NCBI GenBank assembly: GCA_031425655.1
Contig: JANPJS010000279.1
Location: forward strand, 1-33,924
Reading direction: 5' to 3'
DNA length: 33,924 nt
Source: Abditibacteriaceae bacterium
Lineage (GTDB): Bacteria; Armatimonadota; Abditibacteriia; Abditibacteriales; Abditibacteriaceae
The position numbers and the translations under genes are program-made. Numbering within the stretch: the first letter of the stretch is position 1; each line of letters opens with the position of its first letter. Below the pieces are notes generated by a model. The model was not told the origin of the DNA, made no database searches, and worked only from the letters and a program-made list of their open reading frames with translations. Positions 164-22,200 of the stretch are shown piece by piece.

Positions 164-2698
164 ATGCTCGTTCCTTCGTTTTTCAGGTGCCTTATCAAAT
201 TCATCCAAAACCGCACCGACTTCTGCCCATTTCAGACTCGCCGGTGGGTGCCGATGGCGGGCGCGGCGGTGTTCGGCTCGGTGTTGTTTTCGGGCGTCGT
301 GCTTTATGCGGCCACGGCGCCGCAGACGCGCTACGTGCCGGTGAATTCGGCTCATAAGCCCGCTGATAAAAGCGCGTCCGCAACCAAAGCAGCGGCGGTT
401 AAAGTTGCTCCGGCGGGTCAAGCGAAGGCAACGCCGCTTCAAGCCAAACCAACAAAGACCAAGCCGAGTTTCGAGCGCGATGTGGCGCCGATTATCAAGC
501 AATACTGCCTTGATTGTCATGGCACCGAAGAGCCTGCTGCCGAAATTTCGTTGAATGATCTTAAAACGGCTGCTGTGCTGAAACACCGCGACGTGTGGGA
601 TTTAGTGGCGCAAAACGTGGATTCGGGCCATATGCCGCCCAAGCGCAAACCCGGCCCGACACGCGCGCAGCGAGATCGCTTGGTTGAGTGGATTCAAAGC
701 ACGCTTTCCGCGGTGGACTGCAATATCAAAGACCCCGGTCACGTCACGCTTCATCGCCTGAACCGCGAAGAATACAACAACACCATCCGCGACCTCATCG
801 GCGTGGACTTCAAACCGGCTGCCGATTTTCCCTCGGACGACGTTGGTTACGGCTTCGATAACATCGGCGATGTGCTTTCGATTTCGCCTCTGCTGATGGA
901 AAAGTATCTGAGCGCCGCCGAGCAAATCACCGAAAAAGCCATTGTCGTTCCCGAATCCAAAACAGTGCGTTTCAGCGCCGACCGTCTTAACGGCGATGAC
1001 GACGGCGGCACCGGCGCGAACGTATTGCTTGGCATCACCGGCAGCGAAGCGGCGGTCGAACACGAATTCAAAAAGGACGGCGATTATATTCTGCGCGTCC
1101 GCGCTTTTGGCCAGCAATTCGGGCCAGAGCCGGTGCGAATGGCCATTCGTCTCGATGATAAGCGGTTGCGCCGGGTTGATGTCACGGCTGTCGAAGCGGC
1201 GCCGGCCACCTTTGAAGAACCCATCACAGTGAAGGCCGGCAAGCACAAATTGTCGGTTGTTTACACCAATAATTTCAAAGTAACGGACGCGCCCAACCCC
1301 AAAGATCGCGGCGACCGCAATTTGCTCGTCGAATATATCGAAGTCACCGGCCCGCTTGGCCAGCCGGGCCAGCCGGATTTGCCGGAATCGCACAAGCGCA
1401 TTATTTTCCAAACGCCAACGGAAACTAACCGCGTAGAAACGGCGCGAACCCTTTTGCGTGCCTTCGCGCGCCGCGCTTATCGCCGGCCCGTTTCCGATGC
1501 CGAAGTCGAGCGATTGCTGCGCTATGTGAATCTGGCGCAAAAGGAAGGCGAAGGCTTTGAGCGTGGTATTCAACTGGCTGTGCAGGCCATTTTAGCCTCG
1601 CCGCACTTCCTGTTTCGCGTCGAAACCGACCCGAAGGTCACGGATGGGAAAAAAGTAGGTTTGTTAGACGATTATCAAATCGCCACGCGGCTTTCGTATT
1701 TTCTGTGGAGCAGTATGCCGGACGAGGAATTGTTTGATTGCGCCCAGCGCGGCCTCTTGAAAGACCCGGTCGTGTTGGAACAGCAAGTGCGGCGGATGCT
1801 GAAAGACACCAAAGCGCAGGCTTTGGCCGACAACTTCGCCAGCCAATGGCTGACACTGCGCAACTTGGACACTATCGCGCCCGACCCCGACTATTTTCCC
1901 GCTTTTACCGACGGTTTACGCACCGCGATGCGTCAGGAAACTCAGCTATTTTTTCAAGCCATCGTGCGCGAAGATCGCAGCATTATGGACTTTTTGGATG
2001 CCAAATATTCGTATTTGAATGAGCCTTTGGCTCGCCATTATGGGATTGAGGGCATTAGCGGCAGTGAATTTCGGCGTGTAATTTTCGATGCCAAACAAGC
2101 CGAGCAGCGCGGCGGCTTGCTGACGCAGGCCAGTGTGTTGACGGTGACTTCCAATCCGACGCGCACTTCGCCGGTCAAGCGCGGAAAATGGGTTTTGGAA
2201 ACGATTTTCGGAACGCCGCCACCGCCTCCGCCGCCCGACGTGCCTGAACTCGAAGAACCCAAGCAGGCAAGCACCGCCGCGTCGGTGCGGGAACGCTTGG
2301 AAGAGCATCGTAAAAATCCGGCCTGCGCTTCGTGTCACGCCCGCATGGACCCGATTGGTTTTGGGCTGGAAAACTATGATGCGGTTGGCGCCTGGCGCAC
2401 CCGCGATGGTAAATCGGCGGTGGACTCTTCGGGAACCTTGAGTAGCGGCGAATCATTTCGCGGCGCGGCGCAACTCAAGAATATCTTGAAGTCTAAAAAG
2501 AGCGAATTCGCCACGGCTTTGTCCGCCAAACTGCTCACTTACGCATTGGGTCGAGGGCTGGAATCTTACGACAAGTGCGTAGTTCAGGACATCGCAAAAT
2601 ACGCGACTCAGCAGGATTACCGCTTTTCGGCCTTAATCGTTGCCGTCGCGCAAAGCGACCCCTTCCGCAAGAGGAAGAGTAACGGAGGAAATAAATGA
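164..2698 (+). CDS. DUF1592-family (PSD/PSCyt: DUF1587/1595/1592/1588/1585) exported cytochrome c-like protein; start may be ATG 254
   Basis: CLDCH and CASCH heme motifs; HRLNREEYNNTIRDL, GYGFDN, RLSYFLWSSMPD, TSPVKRGKWVL, DPIGFGLENYDAVGAWR; hydrophobic N-terminus; coupled to the DUF1552 gene. Confidence 0.88.
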   Translation: MLVPSFFRCLIKFIQNRTDFCPFQTRRWVPMAGAAVFGSVLFSGVVLYAATAPQTRYVPVNSAHKPADKSASATKAAAVKVAPAGQAKATPLQAKPTKTKPSFERDVAPIIKQYCLDCHGTEEPAAEISLNDLKTAAVLKHRDVWDLVAQNVDSGHMPPKRKPGPTRAQRDRLVEWIQSTLSAVDCNIKDPGHVTLHRLNREEYNNTIRDLIGVDFKPAADFPSDDVGYGFDNIGDVLSISPLLMEKYLSAAEQITEKAIVVPESKTVRFSADRLNGDDDGGTGANVLLGITGSEAAVEHEFKKDGDYILRVRAFGQQFGPEPVRMAIRLDDKRLRRVDVTAVEAAPATFEEPITVKAGKHKLSVVYTNNFKVTDAPNPKDRGDRNLLVEYIEVTGPLGQPGQPDLPESHKRIIFQTPTETNRVETARTLLRAFARRAYRRPVSDAEVERLLRYVNLAQKEGEGFERGIQLAVQAILASPHFLFRVETDPKVTDGKKVGLLDDYQIATRLSYFLWSSMPDEELFDCAQRGLLKDPVVLEQQVRRMLKDTKAQALADNFASQWLTLRNLDTIAPDPDYFPAFTDGLRTAMRQETQLFFQAIVREDRSIMDFLDAKYSYLNEPLARHYGIEGISGSEFRRVIFDAKQAEQRGGLLTQASVLTVTSNPTRTSPVKRGKWVLETIFGTPPPPPPPDVPELEEPKQASTAASVRERLEEHRKNPACASCHARMDPIGFGLENYDAVGAWRTRDGKSAVDSSGTLSSGESFRGAAQLKNILKSKKSEFATALSAKLLTYALGRGLESYDKCVVQDIAKYATQQDYRFSALIVAVAQSDPFRKRKSNGGNK

Positions 2699-4114: not shown

Positions 4115-5011
4115 TTAGGGTTCCAGTGCGGTTTCAGAGGTCAGAAGTTGTGTGAGCAAACTGCCTTTTTCTGGCACCAAAGTGATGCGCGCGGCGCTGT
4201 CGAGGAGCTTTTGCGTTTCTAAAATCTCGAACATGACGTTTACGACTTGTTGGTCTTCCGAAATTTTGTGCAGCGCCGCGCCGACAATCAGCGGGCGCGT
4301 GGCCTGAGCTTTAGCGAATTCAATGGCGGCTTGCCGGTCGGCGGTGCTGGTGATGATGCTGACTTGGTTCGCGCCGTCCTGCTTGATGGCCGAAGTCACT
4401 TGGCGCAGGCGATTGACGACCTTTTCTTCGATTTGGCGGATCATGCCTTCATCGCGGAAATGGACTTTACGAATGTAAACCGAACCAAGTTTGTAACCCC
4501 ATTCGTGAGACTTCGGAGAAACTTCGTGGCGCACGACAAGGCTCATTTTATGGCGGGTTTCCAGCATATCCGCGAGCGGCATATTGCTGAGGCAGCGCAC
4601 CGTCGTATTGCTGACGTTGGCCGCTAAAGAGCCTTGCGGATCGGCGTTTTTGAAGATGTAGGAAACCGGGTCGCTGATATACATTTCATACCAGATGCCG
4701 ATTCCCATCGGAGCGCCTTCTTCAGAGTTCACGGCCTGGCTGCGCAGATATTGCTGATCGAGGCGCATATCTATAACGTGGCAGCGTCCCAACCAGTTGA
4801 CGATCAAGCCGCGTGCGCCGAGTTTGGACCAGAGAAAATACAGTCCCGGCTCGTTGAGAATGGCGATGACTTTCCCAAACAGCACGTAAACATGGCAGCG
4901 ACCTTCTTCAACCACGGTATACACGCCAAACGCGCGTGAAAACGCCGCTAAAATCGGCAGGAAAATGAACATTCCAATGAAAGTGATTAAAAAGCCGGTT
5001 GTAAAGCTCAT
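4115..5011 (-). CDS. SPFH/band-7 domain membrane protein (second of pair)
   Basis: N-terminal TM helix, V-V-E..V.VLFGKV....EPGLYF SPFH-type start, helical C-terminus; ATGA overlap with partner. Confidence 0.8.
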   Translation of the reverse strand: MSFTTGFLITFIGMFIFLPILAAFSRAFGVYTVVEEGRCHVYVLFGKVIAILNEPGLYFLWSKLGARGLIVNWLGRCHVIDMRLDQQYLRSQAVNSEEGAPMGIGIWYEMYISDPVSYIFKNADPQGSLAANVSNTTVRCLSNMPLADMLETRHKMSLVVRHEVSPKSHEWGYKLGSVYIRKVHFRDEGMIRQIEEKVVNRLRQVTSAIKQDGANQVSIITSTADRQAAIEFAKAQATRPLIVGAALHKISEDQQVVNVMFEILETQKLLDSAARITLVPEKGSLLTQLLTSETALEP

Positions 5012-6015
5012 TGTTGGCTCCCCTTGACTTCGAGAATAGCTTGCTGCGCGCGGCTGTAAAGATTGAGTCGGACGTTGCGCAAATAAGCGGGCAGGGCATC
5101 GGGGCCGTTCTTTTTCAGTTCGCCAAGCTGCTCGGCCAGAGCTTGAAGCGGCTCGACTTCGGCATAAGCGTTGAGCGTTTCGATTTCGACCGCGCGCTTC
5201 GACTGCACGATTTTCTGATCCGCCGAGGCCTGAGCCAGGCTAATATCGGAGGAAACGTGGTTGTGAGCGGTGTTGATAGCGGCCAGCGCCGATTCGACTT
5301 CAGGCGGCGGGTCAATCCCCGTTATCAGCGAAGCGTCGAGTGTGATGCCGTAACGCGCCACAGACGACAGACACTCGCGCTCCATGTGTTCGTTCAAGTC
5401 GCGCAGGTTTTTACGCAAATCGTTGATGGAAACGCCGGTCACGACGCTGGCATCCATCGGCTGAGAACCGAGAGGCGCGGTTGGATCGGCGTTGGCGGGC
5501 GCTTCAAAATTGGCGATGCGCTCTCGTAAAACGGAGACAAAGTAGCCCATCACATGAATAATTGGCCGCTTGACGCCGAAAAGATACGCGTATAAATTGC
5601 GCTCGGAAATACGATAGCGAATTTGGCCGTTCAGGCCCGTATTAAGCTGATCTTTGGTGACGGCTTCGAGAACCTGCCCGCCGTTATTGGCCGCCGGATT
5701 TTCCGGGTCGGTAGCCATATTGATGGTCTGGGTGGCAATCGAAACTTTGTAAATGCGCTCCCACGGCCACTTGAAATAAGGGCCGCCGGCGGGAATAACG
5801 CGCACCTGAGGATAAACGTAGCGCTCTTTTTCTTCATCCCGCAAATGCTCGGCAATCGGGTCATCCAAAGTGGTGACGTTCGGGATGCGTTCGGCGCGCC
5901 CGAAGACGGTTTTTACGGCGCGCTCGTTTTGATCAACGGTGTAGAGGCCGGCTAAAAAATATCGCACTAAAAACCATGCGACAAAGCCGAAAATGCTGCC
6001 CAAAATAAAAGACAT
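5008..6015 (-). CDS. SPFH/band-7 domain membrane protein (first of pair)
   Basis: N-terminal TM, YTVDQNERAV..FG, GPYFKWPW, AVTKD, YGITL...ITGIDPPPEVESAL, Ala-rich coiled coil. Confidence 0.85.
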   Translation of the reverse strand: MSFILGSIFGFVAWFLVRYFLAGLYTVDQNERAVKTVFGRAERIPNVTTLDDPIAEHLRDEEKERYVYPQVRVIPAGGPYFKWPWERIYKVSIATQTINMATDPENPAANNGGQVLEAVTKDQLNTGLNGQIRYRISERNLYAYLFGVKRPIIHVMGYFVSVLRERIANFEAPANADPTAPLGSQPMDASVVTGVSINDLRKNLRDLNEHMERECLSSVARYGITLDASLITGIDPPPEVESALAAINTAHNHVSSDISLAQASADQKIVQSKRAVEIETLNAYAEVEPLQALAEQLGELKKNGPDALPAYLRNVRLNLYSRAQQAILEVKGSQQ

Positions 6016-6800: not shown

Positions 6801-6846
6801 AACTTCCGCTTTTTGAAACAGCGACTTCGTCACTCGCTGCCTCCTG

Positions 6847-6891
6847 ACAACAACGCCCGAAGCGAATCGCTTCGGGCGTTGTTGTTTTTTG
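6847..6891 (+). terminator. Intrinsic terminator between the 6411 gene and convergent rtcB
   Basis: 18-bp perfect stem ACAACAACGCCCGAAGCG/CGCTTCGGGCGTTGTTGT running into a T-tract. Confidence 0.8.
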
Positions 6892-6917
6892 CTATACGCA
6901 GAGCGGTTCCCGTTGTA

Positions 6918-6950
6918 ATCGAGCATCAAGAATCGAGCATCAAGCATCAA
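6918..6950. repeat. Heptamer tandem (ATCRAGM) x~4.5 overlapping the rtcB stop
   Basis: ATCGAGC ATCAAGA ATCGAGC ATCAAGC ATCAA. Confidence 0.7.
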
Positions 6951-8383
6951 ATCTGGCCCGGCTCGTCGGCCATGCGCACAATGCGCGGCATGAAGCGCGC
7001 GACGACTTCGACCAAGTCGTTTTGCGCCGCTAAAACACTTTCGATGTCTTTGTAAGCTTGGGGCGCCTCATCCAAGCTGCCGCCTAACAAAGTCACGCCG
7101 CGCTCTTGCAAATAGCGGTCGCGCATCAAATGAGTCAGCGAGTTGATCGCGGCTTTGCGGCCCATTTTGCGGCCCGCGCCGTGCGAGGCCGAGTTGATCG
7201 AACTTCCCACGCCTTTGCCGCGAACGACGTAGCCGGGATCGCCCATTGAGCCGGGAATCACGCCGAAAACGCCATGCCCCGCTGGAGTCGCGCCCTTGCG
7301 GTGCGTGACGACCGGCGTGCCGTCGCTTAGCGTTTCCTTCCACGCGAAGTTGTGGTGATTTTCGACTCTTGCGACTTCTTCCACGCCCGCCGCTTTGGCC
7401 ACGCGTTGATGAATAATGGCATGGTTTGCCGAAGCGAAGCGGCCTGCCAACTCCATCGAAAGCCAGTATTCCTGACCCGGTTCGCTCTCCAGCGGGAGCC
7501 ACGCAAGATGACGAACCGCGTTTTCCAGAGTCGGATGCAAGTTCATGGCAATGCGCGAGTATTCGTTGGCGATTTTCATCCCGACAGCGCGCGAGCCGGA
7601 GTGCGACAGCAGCGCCAGATATTTGCCCGGCTTGAGCTTCAATTCCGGCGTGTATTGCAGCACTTCGATTTCGCCCCACTCGACAAAGTGATTGCCGCTG
7701 CCCGATGAACCAAGCTGCTCCATCGCTTTGAACTGCAAGCCGCGCAGTAGCTTGGTCGCTTTCCACGCCGGGTCGTCCAAAACTTCGTGAACCGGGCGGT
7801 CGTTTTTCTCCCACGCCGAGCCGACGCCAAAGCGCGTTTGCTCACGCAAAGCCCGCTCGAATTGCGTCTTTTTCTGGCCCATGACGTGCGGCGAAAGGTC
7901 GTAAACCGACAACCTCATGCGACAAGCGATGTCCACACCGACTGCGTAAGGAATGACAGCTTCGCTGGTCGCCAAAACGCCGCCGATGGGCAAACCGTAG
8001 CCGACGTGCGCGTCCGGCATCAGCGCGCCGGCTGCCGCGACCGGCAAACGCATCGCGTTGCGCATTTGCACCAGAGCGCCTTCGTCAATGCCTTCCGCGC
8101 CCCAGATTGGAAATTCCAGCGGCTCCGGGCGCAGCGCGCTTTGAATTTTGTCCATCTCCACCGATGTGCGGCGCAGCATCTCGCGCGCCACGTCGCCCAG
8201 TGTTGGATCGGCCAAAAATTCGCCCGGCGCGGCCAAAACTGCGTCTAACTTTTGCAAAGCGGCATCGCGCTCGGCGCCCAAAGCCATCAATTTCGTGCCG
8301 GCGTCTTTCGCCAGCCCGATGACCTTGCCTTCAGCCCAACCGCGCTGCTTGAGCATTTTTCCTGTGATTATTTTCTCGTCCAT
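6947..8383 (-). CDS. rtcB: RtcB RNA 2',3'-cyclic/3'-phosphate-5'-OH ligase with N-terminal extension
   Basis: MPDAHVGYGLPIGG, VGVDIAC, LGSSGSGNHFVE, HSGSR, NHHNFAW, HRKGATPA, IPGSMG, SHGAGR, DEAPQAYK; GAGGA SD before ATG 8383. Confidence 0.96.
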   Translation of the reverse strand: MDEKIITGKMLKQRGWAEGKVIGLAKDAGTKLMALGAERDAALQKLDAVLAAPGEFLADPTLGDVAREMLRRTSVEMDKIQSALRPEPLEFPIWGAEGIDEGALVQMRNAMRLPVAAAGALMPDAHVGYGLPIGGVLATSEAVIPYAVGVDIACRMRLSVYDLSPHVMGQKKTQFERALREQTRFGVGSAWEKNDRPVHEVLDDPAWKATKLLRGLQFKAMEQLGSSGSGNHFVEWGEIEVLQYTPELKLKPGKYLALLSHSGSRAVGMKIANEYSRIAMNLHPTLENAVRHLAWLPLESEPGQEYWLSMELAGRFASANHAIIHQRVAKAAGVEEVARVENHHNFAWKETLSDGTPVVTHRKGATPAGHGVFGVIPGSMGDPGYVVRGKGVGSSINSASHGAGRKMGRKAAINSLTHLMRDRYLQERGVTLLGGSLDEAPQAYKDIESVLAAQNDLVEVVARFMPRIVRMADEPGQI

Positions 8384-8393
8384 GATTCCTCGT

Positions 8394-8487
8394 TTAACCG
8401 CCAAGACACCAAGAGCGCCAAGAAGAAAAAGAGGTTTGAGAAGTTTTCACTTCAATCTCTTGGCGCACTTGGCGTCTTGGCGGTTAA
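8394..8487. repeat. Palindromic mini-element with 9-nt periodic arms, in the rtcB leader
   Basis: TTAACCGCCAAGACACCAAGAGCGCCAAGA ... TCTTGGCGCACTTGGCGTCTTGGCGGTTAA; TTAA at both ends; related to 24304-24362. Confidence 0.85.
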
Positions 8488-8525
8488 TAAAAAAGGCGCG
8501 GGTGTCGAAAGCGACACCCGCGCCT
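8487..8525 (-). terminator. Intrinsic terminator upstream of rtcB (putative attenuator)
   Basis: Minus strand AGGCGCGGGTGTCG-CTTT-CGACACCCGCGCCT then TTTTTAT; U-tract only in the rtcB direction. Confidence 0.88.
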
Positions 8526-8568
8526 GAATGGTGAAAACAGTTCACCAAAGCAGATCGAAATTGGCTGG

Positions 8569-8664
8569 TCAGGGAAAGCGTTTTCCGAGATGCGCCAATT
8601 GCAAACGGGGCCGCGCATGAAGATGCGGAGCAAATCTGGGTAAATAACTGTGATTGAATTCCAT
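8569..8664 (-). CDS. 31-aa leader ORF MEFNHSYLPRFAPHLHARPRLQLAHLGKRFP (not in the ORF track)
   Basis: GGAGGT SD 6 nt before ATG 8664; ends CCC-TGA; lies between the promoter and the terminator. Confidence 0.7.
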   Translation of the reverse strand: MEFNHSYLPRFAPHLHARPRLQLAHLGKRFP

Positions 8665-8709
8665 GCGTGAACCTCCCTCAAAATTGGCCGTCCGGAGCGG
8701 CGGACACTC

Positions 8710-8738
8710 AATATAACGAGTGCCAAGCGATTTGTCAA
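8710..8738 (-). promoter_or_regulatory. Near-consensus sigma70 promoter for leader/rtcB
   Basis: TTGACA (8738-8733), 17-nt spacer, TATATT (8715-8710). Confidence 0.8.
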
Positions 8739-8777: not shown

Positions 8778-9212
8778 ATGACCGTTCTCTTTTCGCCACT
8801 GGGCCTGACCTACGGCACTCTTTATTCCGCGATTTTATTGGTGCGCCCGCAGCGCGTCGTCATTGTTACATCTGAGCAGGCGGCGCATCTGCTCCATTCG
8901 GCGGTGGACGCGGCGCGTTTTTATCACAGCGCGTTTACAGTCGAAACGCACGTTCTGAGCGATCCTTTTCTTGGCTTTCCGGCAGGCCGCTCGCTCGCGC
9001 ACCGTCTCATTGAGCGCGCCGGCGACAGCAACGTGGTCAATCTCACGGGCGGCACCACGGTTTTGCAGGATTGCGCCCATTCGATCTCCATTTTGCTGCG
9101 CTCCGAAAACAAAGCCGTGCGCGAAGTCGCCGTTGTGGATGGCCGCGACGGCGACGAGCAGGCTCGCCAACCTTTGGCTTTAGGCCAACTGGTCGAAGTC
9201 CCGCCGCTTTAA
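8778..9212 (+). CDS. Stand-alone CARF-like Rossmann-fold protein (144 aa)
   Basis: Strand-1 motif VLFSPLGLTYG, P.RVVIVTS, and the CARF motif VVNLTGGTT; no HTH or effector domain; TAGAAT 5 nt before ATG. Confidence 0.7.
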   Translation: MTVLFSPLGLTYGTLYSAILLVRPQRVVIVTSEQAAHLLHSAVDAARFYHSAFTVETHVLSDPFLGFPAGRSLAHRLIERAGDSNVVNLTGGTTVLQDCAHSISILLRSENKAVREVAVVDGRDGDEQARQPLALGQLVEVPPL

Positions 9213-9278
9213 AGTGCGGAGTGCGGAATTCGGAGTGCGAAGCTTGATTCCTCATTCCGAATTCCGCACTCCGCACTT
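9212..9278. repeat. Heptamer-based palindromic element (GTGCGGA)n...(TCCGCAC)n
   Basis: AAGTGCGGAGTGCGGAATTCGGA ... TCCGAATTCCGCACTCCGCACTT; same family as 31437-31508. Confidence 0.88.
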
Positions 9279-9420: not shown

Positions 9421-11976
9421 ATGTGGCAACGATTTACCGAACGGGCGCGGCGCGTGATTTTGCTCGGCCAAGAAGAGGCCAGCAAGATGAACAACAGCCA
9501 CGTCGGGACGGAGCATTTACTTTTGGGATTGGTGCGCGAAAACGAAGGCGTTGCCGCGCAAGTGCTGCAAAAAATGGGCGTGTCTTTGCAGCGCGTGCGG
9601 CAGGAAATTGAAGACGAAGTTGAACCTTCCGACGAAGGCGCGTCGAGTGAGCCGAAGCTCACGCCGCGCGCCAAGCGCGTGCTGGAATTGGCCGCCGACG
9701 AAGCGCGCCGGATGCGCCACAACTACATCGGCACCGAGCATCTTCTTCTGGCTTTGCTGCGCGAGAAAGACGGCGTTGCCGCCAACGTGCTGCGTAAACT
9801 CGGCCTCAATTTGGAAAAAGCGCGCCATCAAGTGATGGAATATCTTGGCCCCGAAGCGCCGACAGCGGAAAAGCAAGGCGCCGAAAAAGGCGCGCCCGGC
9901 GGCGGCCCTGCGGGACGCACAGGCCGTTCGCAAACCCCGGCGCTCGACCAATTTGGACGCGACATCAATCAGCTCGCTATTGACGGCAAGCTCGACCCGG
10001 TTATCGGTCGCCAGCCGCAAATTGACCGCACCATTCAGATTCTCTGCCGCCGCACCAAAAACAACCCGGTGCTCGTCGGCGAGCCGGGCGTGGGCAAAAC
10101 TGCCATCGTCGAAGGTTTGGCGCAGCGCATCGTTTCGCGCGACGTGCCGGAACCGCTGCTCGACAAGAAAATCATCGCATTGGACTTGGCAACGGTCGTC
10201 GCGGGCACCAAATATCGCGGCGAATTCGAAGAGCGAATGAAGCGCATCATGCAGGAAATCCGCGCCGCCAACGGCAAAATCATCGTGTTTATTGACGAAT
10301 TGCACACGATTATCGGCGCCGGAGCCGCCGAAGGCGCCATTGACGCCAGCAATATGCTGAAACCGGCCCTTGCGCGTGGCGAAATGCGCTGCATCGGTGC
10401 CACGACGTTGGACGAATATCGCAAATACATCGAAAAATCCGGTGCCTTAGAACGGCGTTTCCAGATGGTTTTGGTGCCCGAACCGACAGTCGAAGATGCC
10501 ATCGAAATCATGAAGGGCCTGCGTCCGCGCTACGAAGAATTTCACGGCGTGACGATTACGGACGAGGCGCTTCAGGAAGCCGTAGACCTGTCGCAGCGTT
10601 ACATCACGGCGCGCCAACTGCCGGACAAGGCCATTGACCTGATTGACGAGGCCGGAAGCCGTGTCAAGCTGCGCGTGGCATTGCCGCCTAAAACCTTGCG
10701 CGAATTGCAAAAACAGCTCGACGAGTTGAATATCGAGAAGGAATCGGCGGTCAACAACGACGAATACGAAAAAGCCGCCGAACTGCGCGACCGCGCGCAG
10801 GAATTGGAAAAAGCTCTCGAAGACGCCCAAGAAGCGTGGCAAGCCGAGCGCAACGGCACCGACGAGCAGCCGAAAGTCACTGAAGACGACATCGCGCAAA
10901 TCGTGAGCGATTGGACGGGCGTGCCGGTGCGTCGCCTGACCGAAGCCGAAACCGCCAAATTGTTACGCATGGAAGACGAGTTACACAACCGCATCGTCGG
11001 ACAAGACGAAGCGATTAAAGTGATTTCCAAAGCGGTGCGACGTGGGCGGGCCGGTCTTAAAGACCCCAAACGTCCGACCGGCGTGTTCATGTTCGTCGGC
11101 CCGACCGGCGTCGGCAAAACCGAACTGGCGCGTGCCCTTGCCGAATTCCTTTTCGACGACGAAGCGGCGCTGATTCGCTTGGACATGAGCGAGTATTCGG
11201 AACACTTCAACGTGTCGCGGATGCTGGGTTCGCCTCCCGGCTACGTCGGCTACGACGAAGGCGGACAGCTTACCGAGCAAGTGCGCCGTCGCCCGTATTC
11301 CGTCGTGCTTTTCGACGAAATCGAAAAAGCGCACCCGGAAATTTTCAACACGCTGCTGCAAATCTTCGAGGATGGCCGTCTGACCGACGCGCAGGGCCGC
11401 GTGGTGGATTTCAAGAACACGGTTATCATCATGACGAGCAACGTCGGCACGTCGGGCTTGGACAAGAGCCTCGGTTTGCGCGATATGAGCACATCGGGGC
11501 AGGATTCCGAAGCGGCTCATAACACGATGAAAAGCCGCGTCATGGAAGCGTATTCGCGGATGTTCCGCCCCGAATTCCGCAACCGTTTGGACGAGGTTTT
11601 GGTTTTCCATCACCTGACGCACGACCAGATTTTGGAAATCGTGAGCTTCATGTCGAAGCGTGTGGAAAAAGAGTTGGCGCGGCGCGAGATGAAACTGGAA
11701 TTCCTGCCCGCCGCCAAAGAACTTTTGGCCAAAGAAGGCTACGACCGGCAGTTCGGAGCGCGCCCGTTGCGCCGCGCCGTGCAGCGCCTGATCGAAGACC
11801 CGTTGGCCGAGCGCATCCTGATGGGCGACTTCAAAGCCGGCGACACGATTTACGTGGACGCGCAAAACGGCGAAACCGTATTCACCACCGAATTGCCGAC
11901 CGACCTGCCCAACCCCGATGAAATCGTGCCCGACGAGGACAAAGAGCGACTCTCAGCCATGATGGGCGAGGCGTAA
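9421..11976 (+). CDS. clpC: ATP-dependent Clp protease ATPase ClpC
   Basis: Two Clp_N repeats (GTEHLLL), Walker A GEPGVGKT and GPTGVGKT, short UVR-type middle domain (YEKAAELRD), [16 protein letters not shown]. Confidence 0.93.
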
Positions 11977-19237: not shown

Positions 19238-22200
19238 CTACGGCTCGTAATTCAAGTTCGGCGCCAGCCAGCGTTCCATGTCGCTCACTTCGCGGTTTTG
19301 CCGCGCGGCGTAATCTTCGACTTGATCGCGGTTAAGCTTGCCGACAGCGAAATAATGCGCTTGCGGATGCGCTAAATAGATTCCGCTGACCGAACTGGCC
19401 GGGAGCATGGCGAAACTTTCGGTTAGCTCGATATGCGCTTTGCGTTCCGCGTCCAATAAGTCGAAAAGCGCGCGTTTGGGCGTGTGATCGGGGCACGCCG
19501 GATAGCCGAACGCCGGACGGATGCCGCGATATTTTTCCGCCACCAAGTCTGCGTTTTGTAAGTTTTCCCCGGCGCCGTATACCCAGTCTTTGCGCGCTTG
19601 CGCGTGCAAATATTCGGCGAAGGCTTCGGCTAAACGGTCGCCCAACGCTTGCGCCATCAGCGCGCTGTGATCGTCGTGCTGCTTTTTAAAATCGGCGACC
19701 AATTTGTCCAGACCGATGCCCGTCGTGACGGCGAAAGCGCCGACGTAATCGGGCAAATTGGTTTCGCGCGGCGCTACGAAATCGGCTAACGATAAATCGA
19801 AACGGCCTTCGGCTTTGTCAATTTGCTGGCGCAGCATCGGAAAGCGCACCAATTCTTCGTCGCGCGCCTCGGATTTGTAAAGCACGATGTCGTCGCCGAC
19901 CGAATTCGCCGCGAAAAAGCCGTAAACCGCCCGCGCCGTCAGCGATTGGCGCTTGACGATGCGGTCGAGCAGCTTTTGCGCGTCTTCAAAGGTTTCTCGT
20001 GCGACTTTGCCGACAATTTCGTCCTCGAAAATTTGCGGATATGTGCCTTTTAATTCCCACGTCGCAAAAAACGGCGACCAATCAATGAAAGGCACGATTT
20101 CTTCGAGCGGCACTTTGTTCAGCATCCGCAAACCCAGAAAATCGGGCTTGGCGAGGTCTTCCGCCTTCCATTCAATCGGAAAGCGGCGTTTGCGCGCTTC
20201 GGCGATAGGCAGCAGCGGTTTGGCATCGCGTTTGGCGGCGTGCGCGGCGCGATCTTTGGCCTGCGCTGCTTCGGTTTTGGCGACAAAATCGTCTTTTTGG
20301 TCGTCGCTGAGTAAATTGGAAACAACGCCGACGGCACGCGAGGCATCCAAAACGTGAACCACGGTTCCGCTATAATGCTGCGCGATTTTCACGGCGGTAT
20401 GAATGCGACTCGTCGTGGCGCCGCCGATGAGAAGTGGAACCGTGAAATCTTGGCGCGTCATTTCGCGGGCGACGTGGGCCATTTCGTCGAGTGAGGGCGT
20501 AATCAGGCCGGAAAGCCCGATAATATCGGCGTTTACTTCACGCGCTTTGTCTAAAATCTTCTCGCAGGGCACCATGACGCCCATATCAATCACTTCGTAA
20601 TTGTTGCAGCCCAAAACCACGCCAACGATGTTTTTGCCGATGTCGTGAACGTCGCCTTTGACGGTCGCCAGCACGACTTTGCCTTGCGCTTTAGCGCCCG
20701 TTGCGGCCTTTTCTTCTTCCATAAAGGGCAGCAAATACGCGACGGATTTTTTCATCACGCGCGCCGATTTCACGACTTGCGGCAGGAACATTTTGCCCGC
20801 GCCAAACAAATCGCCGACGATGTTCATGCCGTCCATCAACGGCCCTTCGATGACCGAAAGAGGCCGTCCATATTTCGCCCGCGCTTCTTCGGTATCGGCG
20901 TCCACAAAGGCGTCAATGCCCTTGACTAAAGCGTGCGAAAGGCGCTCTTCAACAGTGCCTTCGCGCCATGCCTCGGTTTGCACTTCGCCTTTGGCTTTGG
21001 CCTTGACTGTTTCCGCGAAATCCACCAATCGTTCGGTGGCGTCCGGGCGGCGATTCAAGAGCACGTCTTCGACAAGAACCAGCAATTCCGGCTCGATTTC
21101 TTCATAAACTTCGAGCATTCCGGCGTTGACGATGCCCATATCCAGCCCGGCTTCGATGGCGTGCTTCAAAAACGCGCCGTGCATCGCTTCGCGCACCGTG
21201 TTGTTGCCTCGGAAGCTAAAACTGATGTTGCTAACGCCGCCCGAAACCTTGCAGCCGGGCAGGTTGGCTTTAATCCAGCGCGTGGCGTTGATGAAATCCA
21301 CCGCGTAATTGTTGTGCTCTTCCAGCCCGGTCGCAACCGTGAGAATATTTGGGTCGAAAATAATATCTTCGGGCGGCACACCGACTTGTTCCGTGAGGAT
21401 TTTGTAGCAGCGCGCACAAATGTCAATGCGCTTTTGATAATCGTCGGCTTGGCCGTTTTCGTCGAAGGCCATGACCACCATGCCGGCGCCGTAACGACGA
21501 ATCAGCCCGGCGCGACGACGAAATTCGTCTTCGCCTTCTTTGAGCGAAATCGAATTGACGATGCCTTTGCCCTGCAAACATTTCAGCCCGGCTTCCAGCA
21601 CGCTCCACTTGGAACTGTCCACCATGAACGGCACTTTGGAGATGTCCGGTTCGGCGGCGATGAGGTTGAGAAACGTGGTCATCATCGCTTCGGAATCAAG
21701 CATTCCCTCATCGAAGTTCACGTCAATGATGTTGGCGCCGTTTTCCACTTGCTGGCGCGCGATAGCTACGCCCTCTTCCAAATTTCCTTCTCGCACCAGA
21801 CGCGCGAATTTCGGGCTTCCCGTCACGTTCGTGCGCTCGCCGACCATCGTAAAGTTGCTTTCAGGGCGAATCGTGAGTGCTTCCAAGCCGCTGAAGCGCG
21901 ACAATTTTTCGGTCGGAGTCGCGCGACGCGGCGCAAACTCCTGAACTGCTTCTTTGATGGCGCGAATATGGTCGGGCGTGGTGCCGCAGCATCCGCCGAC
22001 GATGTTCAGCCAGCCGTTTTGCGCCCATTCTTTCAGATAAGGCGCCATGCTTTGCGGCGTTTCGGGAAATCCGGTTTCCGACAACGGATCAGGCAGCCCG
22101 GCGTTGGGATAAACGCTGAAATAAACCGGTGCGATGGCCGTTAATTCCTCGACGTAAGGCCTCATTTCCTTTGGCCCCAGCGCGCAGTTGAGACCGACGC

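Follow-up and report, generated by a model that had tools for sequence, protein, structure and literature searches.

A leader with a short open reading frame and an intrinsic terminator precedes rtcB in Abditibacteriaceae and is a likely ribosome-dependent transcription attenuator

Results

Organization of the rtcB locus

The window, i.e., the whole stretch of DNA that was analysed, comprises positions 1 to 33,924 of contig JANPJS010000279.1 (assembly GCA_031425655.1) from an Abditibacteriaceae bacterium. A previous sequence-only reading had proposed that the RNA-repair gene rtcB on the minus strand is preceded by a promoter, a Shine-Dalgarno (SD) sequence, a 31-codon open reading frame (the uORF), a small hairpin, a terminator and a palindrome. 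All of these elements are present at the minus-strand positions listed below, and this leader anatomy is confirmed. The features of the locus are as follows.

8778-9212, plus strand: gene for a stand-alone CARF-fold protein, divergent from the leader promoter
8738-8710, minus strand: sigma-70-type promoter, TTGACA-17-TATATT, matching 11 of 12 consensus positions
8676-8671, minus strand: SD sequence of the uORF, GGAGGT, 6 nt 5' of the ATG
8664-8569, minus strand: leader uORF of 31 codons ending in CCC-TGA; its presence and stop position are conserved, its peptide is not
8614-8602, minus strand: predicted antiterminator strand, pairing with the terminator 5' arm
8600-8559, minus strand: inner hairpin around the uORF stop, belonging to the predicted multibranch antiterminator fold
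8547-8529, minus strand: small 7-bp hairpin immediately 5' of the terminator
8525-8486, minus strand: intrinsic terminator (14-bp stem at 8525-8494 plus U-tract), beginning 43 nt past the uORF stop
8394-8487, no strand: REP-like dispersed palindrome between the terminator and the rtcB SD
6947-8391, minus strand: rtcB (478 aa; Pfam RtcB, E = 1e-80), including its SD at 8391-8387, with the start at 8383
6846-6886, no strand: 19-bp hairpin 3' of rtcB, likely a bidirectional terminator

Transcription of the leader would be expected to start at about 8702-8701, and the leader RNA is approximately 215 nt long. The terminator stem alone has a folding energy of -27.7 kcal/mol. In a 5-kb scan, two promoter-like sites were found when 1.5 were expected. 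The leader peptide has no Pfam match and is absent from the protein collection searched; a comparison of the leader with Rfam gave only weak hairpin matches and nothing at the gathering score, and a search of the window for tRNA and tmRNA genes found none. The encoded RtcB, the only one in this genome, is extended N-terminally by about 95 aa, and the RtcB motifs can be aligned with those of P. horikoshii RtcB. A CIRCE-like repeat across the -10 box was rejected as a regulatory element since its spacing is 8 instead of 9 and it is missing from the promoter of L059, the metagenomic contig that is the nearest relative of the window.

The palindrome at 8394-8487 was likewise rejected as a regulatory part: it belongs to a dispersed family with 13 complete copies on 12 contigs of the genome and lies in a spacer of variable length, which in relatives often contains other palindromes. 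As had been suggested, its removal brings the U-tract close to the rtcB SD, the stem then ending about 17 nt from the rtcB ATG. Further short palindromic or tandem intergenic repeats occur in the window at 9212-9278 and 6917-6944, and several unrelated repeat families occupy intergenic spaces in Abditibacteriaceae.

Conservation of the leader

An rtcB orthologue is present in all 27 genomes of the family. When the regions upstream of these genes were compared, in line with a check that the sequence-only reading had called for, a promoter, an SD, a uORF and a terminator of the GGCGCG/AGCGCG type with a U-tract were found directly 5' of rtcB in 26/27 genomes, although these genomes are kin and such counts overstate independence. 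The exception is G007, in which rtcB lies behind other genes and no promoter or terminator passed the filter within 5 kb. The 26 leaders, together with that of L059, form the set of 27 used below.

In this set, the promoter scores 9 to 12 of 12 in 26/27 leaders, and in one genome (G014) the -35 box is displaced. All 27 leaders have an SD-led ATG downstream of the promoter, and the first such ATG opens an ORF of 30-48 codons whose stop lies 18-52 nt 5' of the stem. The expectation from shuffled sequences is 0.145 per locus for this ORF/stop geometry given an ATG, and 0.004 for the whole leader. In 23/27 leaders the stop-to-stem distance is only 18-31 nt; it is longer in the window and in L059 because an extra hairpin sits there, namely the one at 8547-8529 and, at the equivalent position of L059, a hairpin of other sequence. 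Downstream of the -10 box, C occupies position 8 in 24/27 leaders and G position 9 in 20/27. Positions 6-9 read Y-Y-C-G in most rtcB leaders, and tRNA promoters are pyrimidine-rich before G; start-nucleotide control could be a second regulatory layer.

Two peculiarities of the rtcB genes were seen in passing. One genome (G002; L032 and L058) contains two rtcB starts with two different leaders, one of them cut by the contig end, reflecting either a duplication or a mixed bin. In five family genomes (L020, L021, L022, L023 and L025), RtcB is split at residue ~153-155 by a large in-frame insertion, probably an intein, giving open frames of 718-809 aa.

Leaders of this kind are not confined to one family. 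N-terminally extended RtcB also occurs in 41/151 sampled Ktedonobacterales genomes. Among the best 30 loci of this order, a GCGCG stem lies 5' of rtcB in 28 (one of them degenerate); 25 have an SD-led uORF, 27-54 codons long, whose end lies 17-44 nt 5' of the stem. In the wider distribution (75/80 loci, after removal of three Abditibacterium records and two records whose flanks were short), the terminator filter, which is biased against AT-rich stems, was positive at 1/15 loci labelled Anaerolineae and 4/44 labelled Bacteroidota.

Within the genome of the window, 4 of 427 strong terminators are preceded by a promoter of at least 10/12 and an SD-led uORF in the same geometry. With looser filters, a promoter was found at 30 of 1138 terminators and a short ORF in 12 of those 30; several of these 12 units are ordinary small genes. 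A single locus would therefore be weak proof, and it is the conservation before rtcB that points to more than chance. Inspection by eye of other rescue genes in this genome (two ABC-F genes, hflX, an ArfB-like gene and hen1) revealed no such leader. A 24-codon Ile/Val-rich leader with a terminator at G000:C70 (~9840-9981, plus strand) precedes a gene that, by eye, resembles a branched-chain synthase; this leader is probably a classical amino-acid attenuator.

Absence of RtcR and of a second promoter

RtcR was detected in none of the 27 family genomes in a search whose E. coli control was positive. Sigma-54 is present in all 27, and RtcA was not found in the genome of the window. The distance from the stem to rtcB ranges from 19 to 219 nt across relatives, and four loci have just 19-33 nt between the two, too little for an additional promoter. 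By consensus scanning, the best sigma-70 match 3' of the terminator was 8/12 over all 27 leaders, and no sigma-54 motif was present within 450 nt in any of them. The earlier view that no separate promoter lies between the terminator and rtcB thus agrees with the scan. Taken together, the sequences support the notion that the uORF-terminator leader may gate rtcB in a family without detected RtcR.

A predicted antiterminator within the uORF

By eye, no convincing antiterminator had been recognised. One is predicted inside the uORF: when the nascent RNA was folded (MFE) as far as the terminator loop, it formed a multibranch structure in which a core at 8614-8605, consisting of the last base of codon 17 and the R-P-R codons 18-20, pairs with the terminator 5' arm at 8511-8521. 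In L059, 10/10 core pairs are kept, two of them via a one-sided change. In the same two-sequence alignment, the inner hairpin at 8600-8559 shows one A-U to U-A change and several broken pairs. Folding of the nascent RNA thus predicts an antiterminator, but the window's own pairing was better than that of shuffled sequences in none of five tests (z = +1.0, +0.7, +1.4, +1.1 and -0.1).

Folding was repeated with a ribosome (30-nt footprint) at successive positions. The 13-pair antiterminator of the window persists with the P-site at codons 1-12, when capture of the arm gains -9 to -16 kcal/mol. From codon 14 onwards it no longer forms, and the gain falls to -7 to -9 kcal/mol through other partners. 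Capture is weakest with the ribosome at codons 18-20 or 31. The mean arm-pairing probability is nearly flat over ribosome positions (0.78 free, 0.69 at the stop), and the terminator fold beats the antiterminator fold by 14-23 kcal/mol at every position. As the terminator fold is the more stable one in every state, any switch must be kinetic.

Across 30 leaders, a whole-leader duplex test gave 3 cases at p<=0.05 (mean z -0.1), and the cognate arm beat other arm types in 15/30. When the inner arm was paired with an interval reaching from 66 to 12 nt 5' of the end of the stop, which was chosen after inspection, 8/30 exceeded shuffles. Signals were clearer in Ktedonobacterales. Using 15 leaders that passed a stricter filter (L253 being excluded as a repeat of L065), ungapped pairing of the inner arm exceeded shuffles in 3/15 versus 0/15 in a 5' control interval, and pairing of the whole arm with the 3' half of the uORF, a variant introduced only at this step, did so in 8/15 versus 1/15. 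A windowed duplex test was positive in 8/17 Ktedonobacterales leaders (control, 0/17) and in 1/27 family leaders (control, 3/27). The folding gain 3' of an initiating ribosome was above shuffles in 7/27 family and 7/15 Ktedonobacterales leaders.

Covariation was examined in 17 Ktedonobacterales leaders anchored on the uORF-side motif, an alignment in which the core positions are circular and one leader is probably mis-anchored. One flanking helix position alternates between U-A (7) and C-G (7), and a second, outside the terminator stem, between U-A (13) and C-G (3); the independent events are few, the seven C-G pairs at one position coming from one tight clade. The predicted antiterminator strand lies ~20-65 nt 5' of the uORF stop. 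In one Ktedonobacterales leader, L249, the predicted antiterminator is an unambiguous helix of 14 bp. These comparisons support a predicted antiterminator inside the uORF well in Ktedonobacterales and weakly in Abditibacteriaceae.

The uORF peptide is free while its stop is fixed

Across 45 leaders, the uORF peptides share no motif, sequence or length, and their stop codons are mixed. Between close pairs, non-synonymous changes are frequent and third-position changes are in mild excess. RtcB of the window is 84% identical to that of L059 over the first 150 residues, and the two leaders are clearly homologous; their central uORF bases are read in different frames, and the same CCC-TGA stop is reached. 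A free peptide combined with a fixed stop suggests selection on the open frame and the stop distance, not on an arrest peptide. The possibility that the uORFs sample all amino acids was rejected, as the numbers of distinct residues equal those expected (14.5 vs 14.6 in the family and 13.5 vs 13.8 in Ktedonobacterales).

Arrest-peptide attenuators of the TnaC or macrolide-arrest type carry a conserved arrest motif at a fixed position of the peptide; here, no arrest motif is conserved and the reading frame differs between the window and L059. The sequence-only reading had pointed to the RPR motif (R/K-x-R/K type) and to the Pro-UGA end as stalling contexts, and a ribosome arrested at either would, according to this explanation, turn rtcB on. 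CCC-UGA does end the uORFs of both the window and L059, and the uORFs are rich in Arg (14%) and Pro (9%). However, Pro-UGA occurs in only 2 of the 45 uORFs, and R/K-x-R/K is not enriched (9/27 family uORFs vs 13.0; 9/17 in Ktedonobacterales vs 7.2). Moreover, the RPR codons are the antiterminator strand, so that a ribosome stalled there would block, not cause, read-through, and codons 18-20 and 31 are precisely the positions with the weakest arm capture. We consider an arrest-peptide attenuator very improbable. What stands of the proposed leader-peptide attenuator is the conserved uORF-terminator leader; the specific stalling contexts are not supported.

A model for ribosome-dependent attenuation

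We propose, as the likely explanation, that the leader acts as a ribosome-dependent transcription attenuator responding to translation failure in general, rtcB being turned on when ribosomes falter. By analogy with described systems, we infer that the uORF is translated and that transcription terminates, and likewise which way the switch works and which stresses induce it. A strong housekeeping promoter would produce the ~215-nt leader. A ribosome traversing the uORF would melt the mid-ORF antiterminator strand and then stop at a codon slightly too far 5' to cover the terminator arm, allowing the terminator to form and keeping rtcB off. If initiation fails or the ribosome stalls early (in the window, at one of roughly the first 12 codons), codons 17-21 would supply the strand that captures the 5' arm first, and RNA polymerase would continue into rtcB. 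The peptide would be a by-product, with ribosome progress, and not an arrest motif, as the sensor; inducers might include antibiotics, cleaved tRNA or rRNA, and starvation. In a subgroup (G023, G021 and G012), the arm is captured most readily when the ribosome is near the end of the ORF, and capture falls away once it has reached the stop, suggesting that the sensitive interval differs between lineages.

Alternatively, there might be no switch at all, the unit being a small stand-alone gene or an sRNA whose leaky terminator keeps rtcB at a constant low level. Ordinary small genes do share this layout of promoter, short ORF and terminator; at equilibrium the terminator prevails, and close pairs show the mild third-position excess. 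We nevertheless find this quite unlikely: a gene product is difficult to reconcile with a peptide conserved in neither sequence nor length over 45 leaders, or with homologous bases that are read in different frames in the window and L059 up to the same stop place, and the unit is attached to rtcB in two phyla with an antiterminator pairing that covaries.

The CARF neighbour

The protein encoded at 8778-9212 has no Pfam or NCBIfam match; its predicted fold (pLDDT 90) best matches Csm6 CARF domains and ring nucleases. The gene is present in 20/27 family genomes, is head-to-head with rtcB in 14, and is adjoined by a Clp N-domain gene in 8/20 loci. A strong Cas10 match was obtained in 2/27 genomes. 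A link between the CARF protein and RNA repair is plausible; no paper on a stand-alone CARF protein beside rtcB was found in our literature search.

This neighbour brings up another logic for a translation-dependent attenuator, in which a protein (e.g., the CARF protein bound to broken RNA ends) or stop-codon read-through blocks the terminator, and cis pairing is merely secondary. The weak antiterminator signal in Abditibacteriaceae would agree with it, as would, for the protein version, the head-to-head arrangement in 14 of the 20 CARF-bearing genomes in a family with so few strong Cas10 matches. Yet the full cassette is found at rtcB in 6/7 genomes without a CARF match and in 5/6 genomes whose CARF gene is located elsewhere, and the cis antiterminator covaries in Ktedonobacterales. 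Read-through onto the arm is unsupported: the frame from the stop to the terminator arm is open in 25/27 leaders, near the 84% expected, more than one kind of stop codon is used, and a further in-frame stop of the window lies 16 nt 5' of the stem. We therefore regard this logic as unlikely and favour attenuation by ribosome progress.

A second leader family at tRNA arrays

The genome-wide control described above revealed a second leader with the same geometry, heading a tRNA cluster. The tRNA-array leaders of the genome of the window are listed here; the family set is L288-L303.

G000:C61, ~875-1140, minus strand: tRNA-array leader
G000:C317, ~20280-20565, minus strand: tRNA-array leader

The terminator pattern of this second family occurs in 16 copies in 11/27 genomes, with none in a reversed control. 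Fourteen of the 16 leaders precede tRNA genes, with up to 14 tRNAs within 1.5 kb; Hen1 is also encoded downstream of one of these tRNA leaders, and a Ro60/TROVE gene lies further along in two. One leader precedes a distant Ro60-like ORF (pairwise E 1e-5), and five Ro60 operons begin without the second-family terminator. An ATG-led ORF of 25-85 codons, ending 18-35 nt before the stem, is present in 16/16 leaders versus 1.3 expected, a clear SD being absent from many and four being leaderless. The number of distinct residues in these uORFs is as expected (16.6 vs 16.6), and arm pairing exceeds shuffles in 5/16 (control, 0/16). In the genome of the window, 11 of the 12 tRNAs behind the two leaders duplicate anticodons present elsewhere. 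The rtcB leaders and the second family have no detectable common sequence. This difference, the five Ro60 operons without the terminator, and the lack of such a leader at the hen1, ABC-F, hflX and ArfB-like genes of this genome speak against a neatly defined regulon.

The second family hints at an attenuator-run RNA-repair response. Going further, we suggest tentatively, and with a little more doubt than confidence, that the translation-damage response of Abditibacteriaceae may be largely wired through RNA, with rtcB, the tRNA arrays and some Ro60, Y-like RNA and Hen1 loci co-induced by poor ribosome progress, and that the leader may have travelled with rtcB between two phyla. If true, RNA wiring would join RtcR/sigma-54 and TrcR as a third way of controlling this gene set.

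Some of the RNAs are unusual in themselves. Three tRNAs with Leu anticodons in the G000:C61 array are only 74 nt long and have no long variable arm. At G000:C249 1-2912 (L279-L287), a Ro60/TROVE gene lies behind tRNAs and tRNA-like elements with long insertions; these elements, with a recurring GGGCCG...GGGTTATC motif, are probably Y-like RNAs, and Rfam calls some of them only tRNA.

Discussion

If the proposed model is right, what cells measure is not the broken RNA end but a consequence of RNA damage, i.e., ribosomes that fail to advance. No new protein would be needed, which suits a signal that itself blocks translation. With a leader of ~215 nt and a housekeeping promoter, the model is testable in a reporter, and the natural leader variants separate the features that matter (stop position and pairing) from the peptide. 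Matching leaders on spare tRNA arrays also make array regulation testable outside cyanobacteria.

An attenuator on an RtcB-like gene is already described for P. aeruginosa PA5471.1-armZ (PA5471)-PA5470 (PMC12057347, PMC3516279, PMC3575510). That system resembles the one proposed here in having a translated leader and a terminator before an RtcB-family gene, with read-through proposed under ribosome disturbance; its leader, ~250 bp upstream, is of 13 aa, and the controlled gene, which has a linked release-factor gene, encodes an anti-repressor. The uORF described here, in contrast, has 27-54 codons of free sequence with the predicted antiterminator inside, and it precedes the sole rtcB, whose motifs are intact, in two phyla other than that of P. 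aeruginosa. The RtcB of the window scores below the cut-offs of the release-factor-linked RtcB models, and there is no release-factor gene in its operon: a terminator follows rtcB, and RF-1-family matches are on other contigs.

The best mechanistic match, by analogy, is the whiB7 uORF attenuator of mycobacteria (PMC10274678; 10.1101/2025.10.10.681568), which is induced when translation is poor, also when the start codon has been lost. Both systems have a long uORF of variable length and sequence, an antiterminator (here a predicted one) overlapping uORF codons, and an intrinsic terminator; in mycobacteria the target is a transcription factor that feeds back positively, and the uORF is rich in alanine. 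Unlike whiB7, the leader described here would gate a repair enzyme directly, and the amino-acid diversity of its uORF is not above chance. Judged by sequence and operon, the rtcB leader belongs to neither the PA5471.1/armZ nor the whiB7 system. In the literature covered, which lacks most subscription journals, attenuators of a canonical rtcB or of a tRNA array are not described; PMC4007540 mentions both terms with no link between them.

In E. coli and Salmonella, rtcBA is controlled by RtcR and sigma-54 (PMC7790460). The target gene, the presumed stress (damaged RNAs of translation) and a CARF domain encoded divergently from rtcB are shared with that system. Here, however, the CARF protein is without an AAA+ or HTH part, control would be exerted after initiation, and RtcR (0/27 genomes), RtcA (in this genome) and a sigma-54 motif were not found.

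In Anabaena, as reported in PMC8421152 and PMC10272220, rtcB and a spare tRNA array, the trn L-array, are co-induced under translational stress as members of the TrcR regulon, and hen1-pnkP is induced late. TrcR is described there as a DNA-binding repressor acting at promoter repeats, whereas in Abditibacteriaceae rtcB and the tRNA arrays are preceded by uORF-terminator leaders that belong to two sequence families unrelated to each other. Direct repeats over the -10 box are a feature of the TrcR regulon. A slipin gene is on the TrcR list. In the window, two SPFH/Band 7 genes (4115-6015, minus strand) lie 1 kb past rtcB, cut off from it by a terminator and an opposite-strand ORF.
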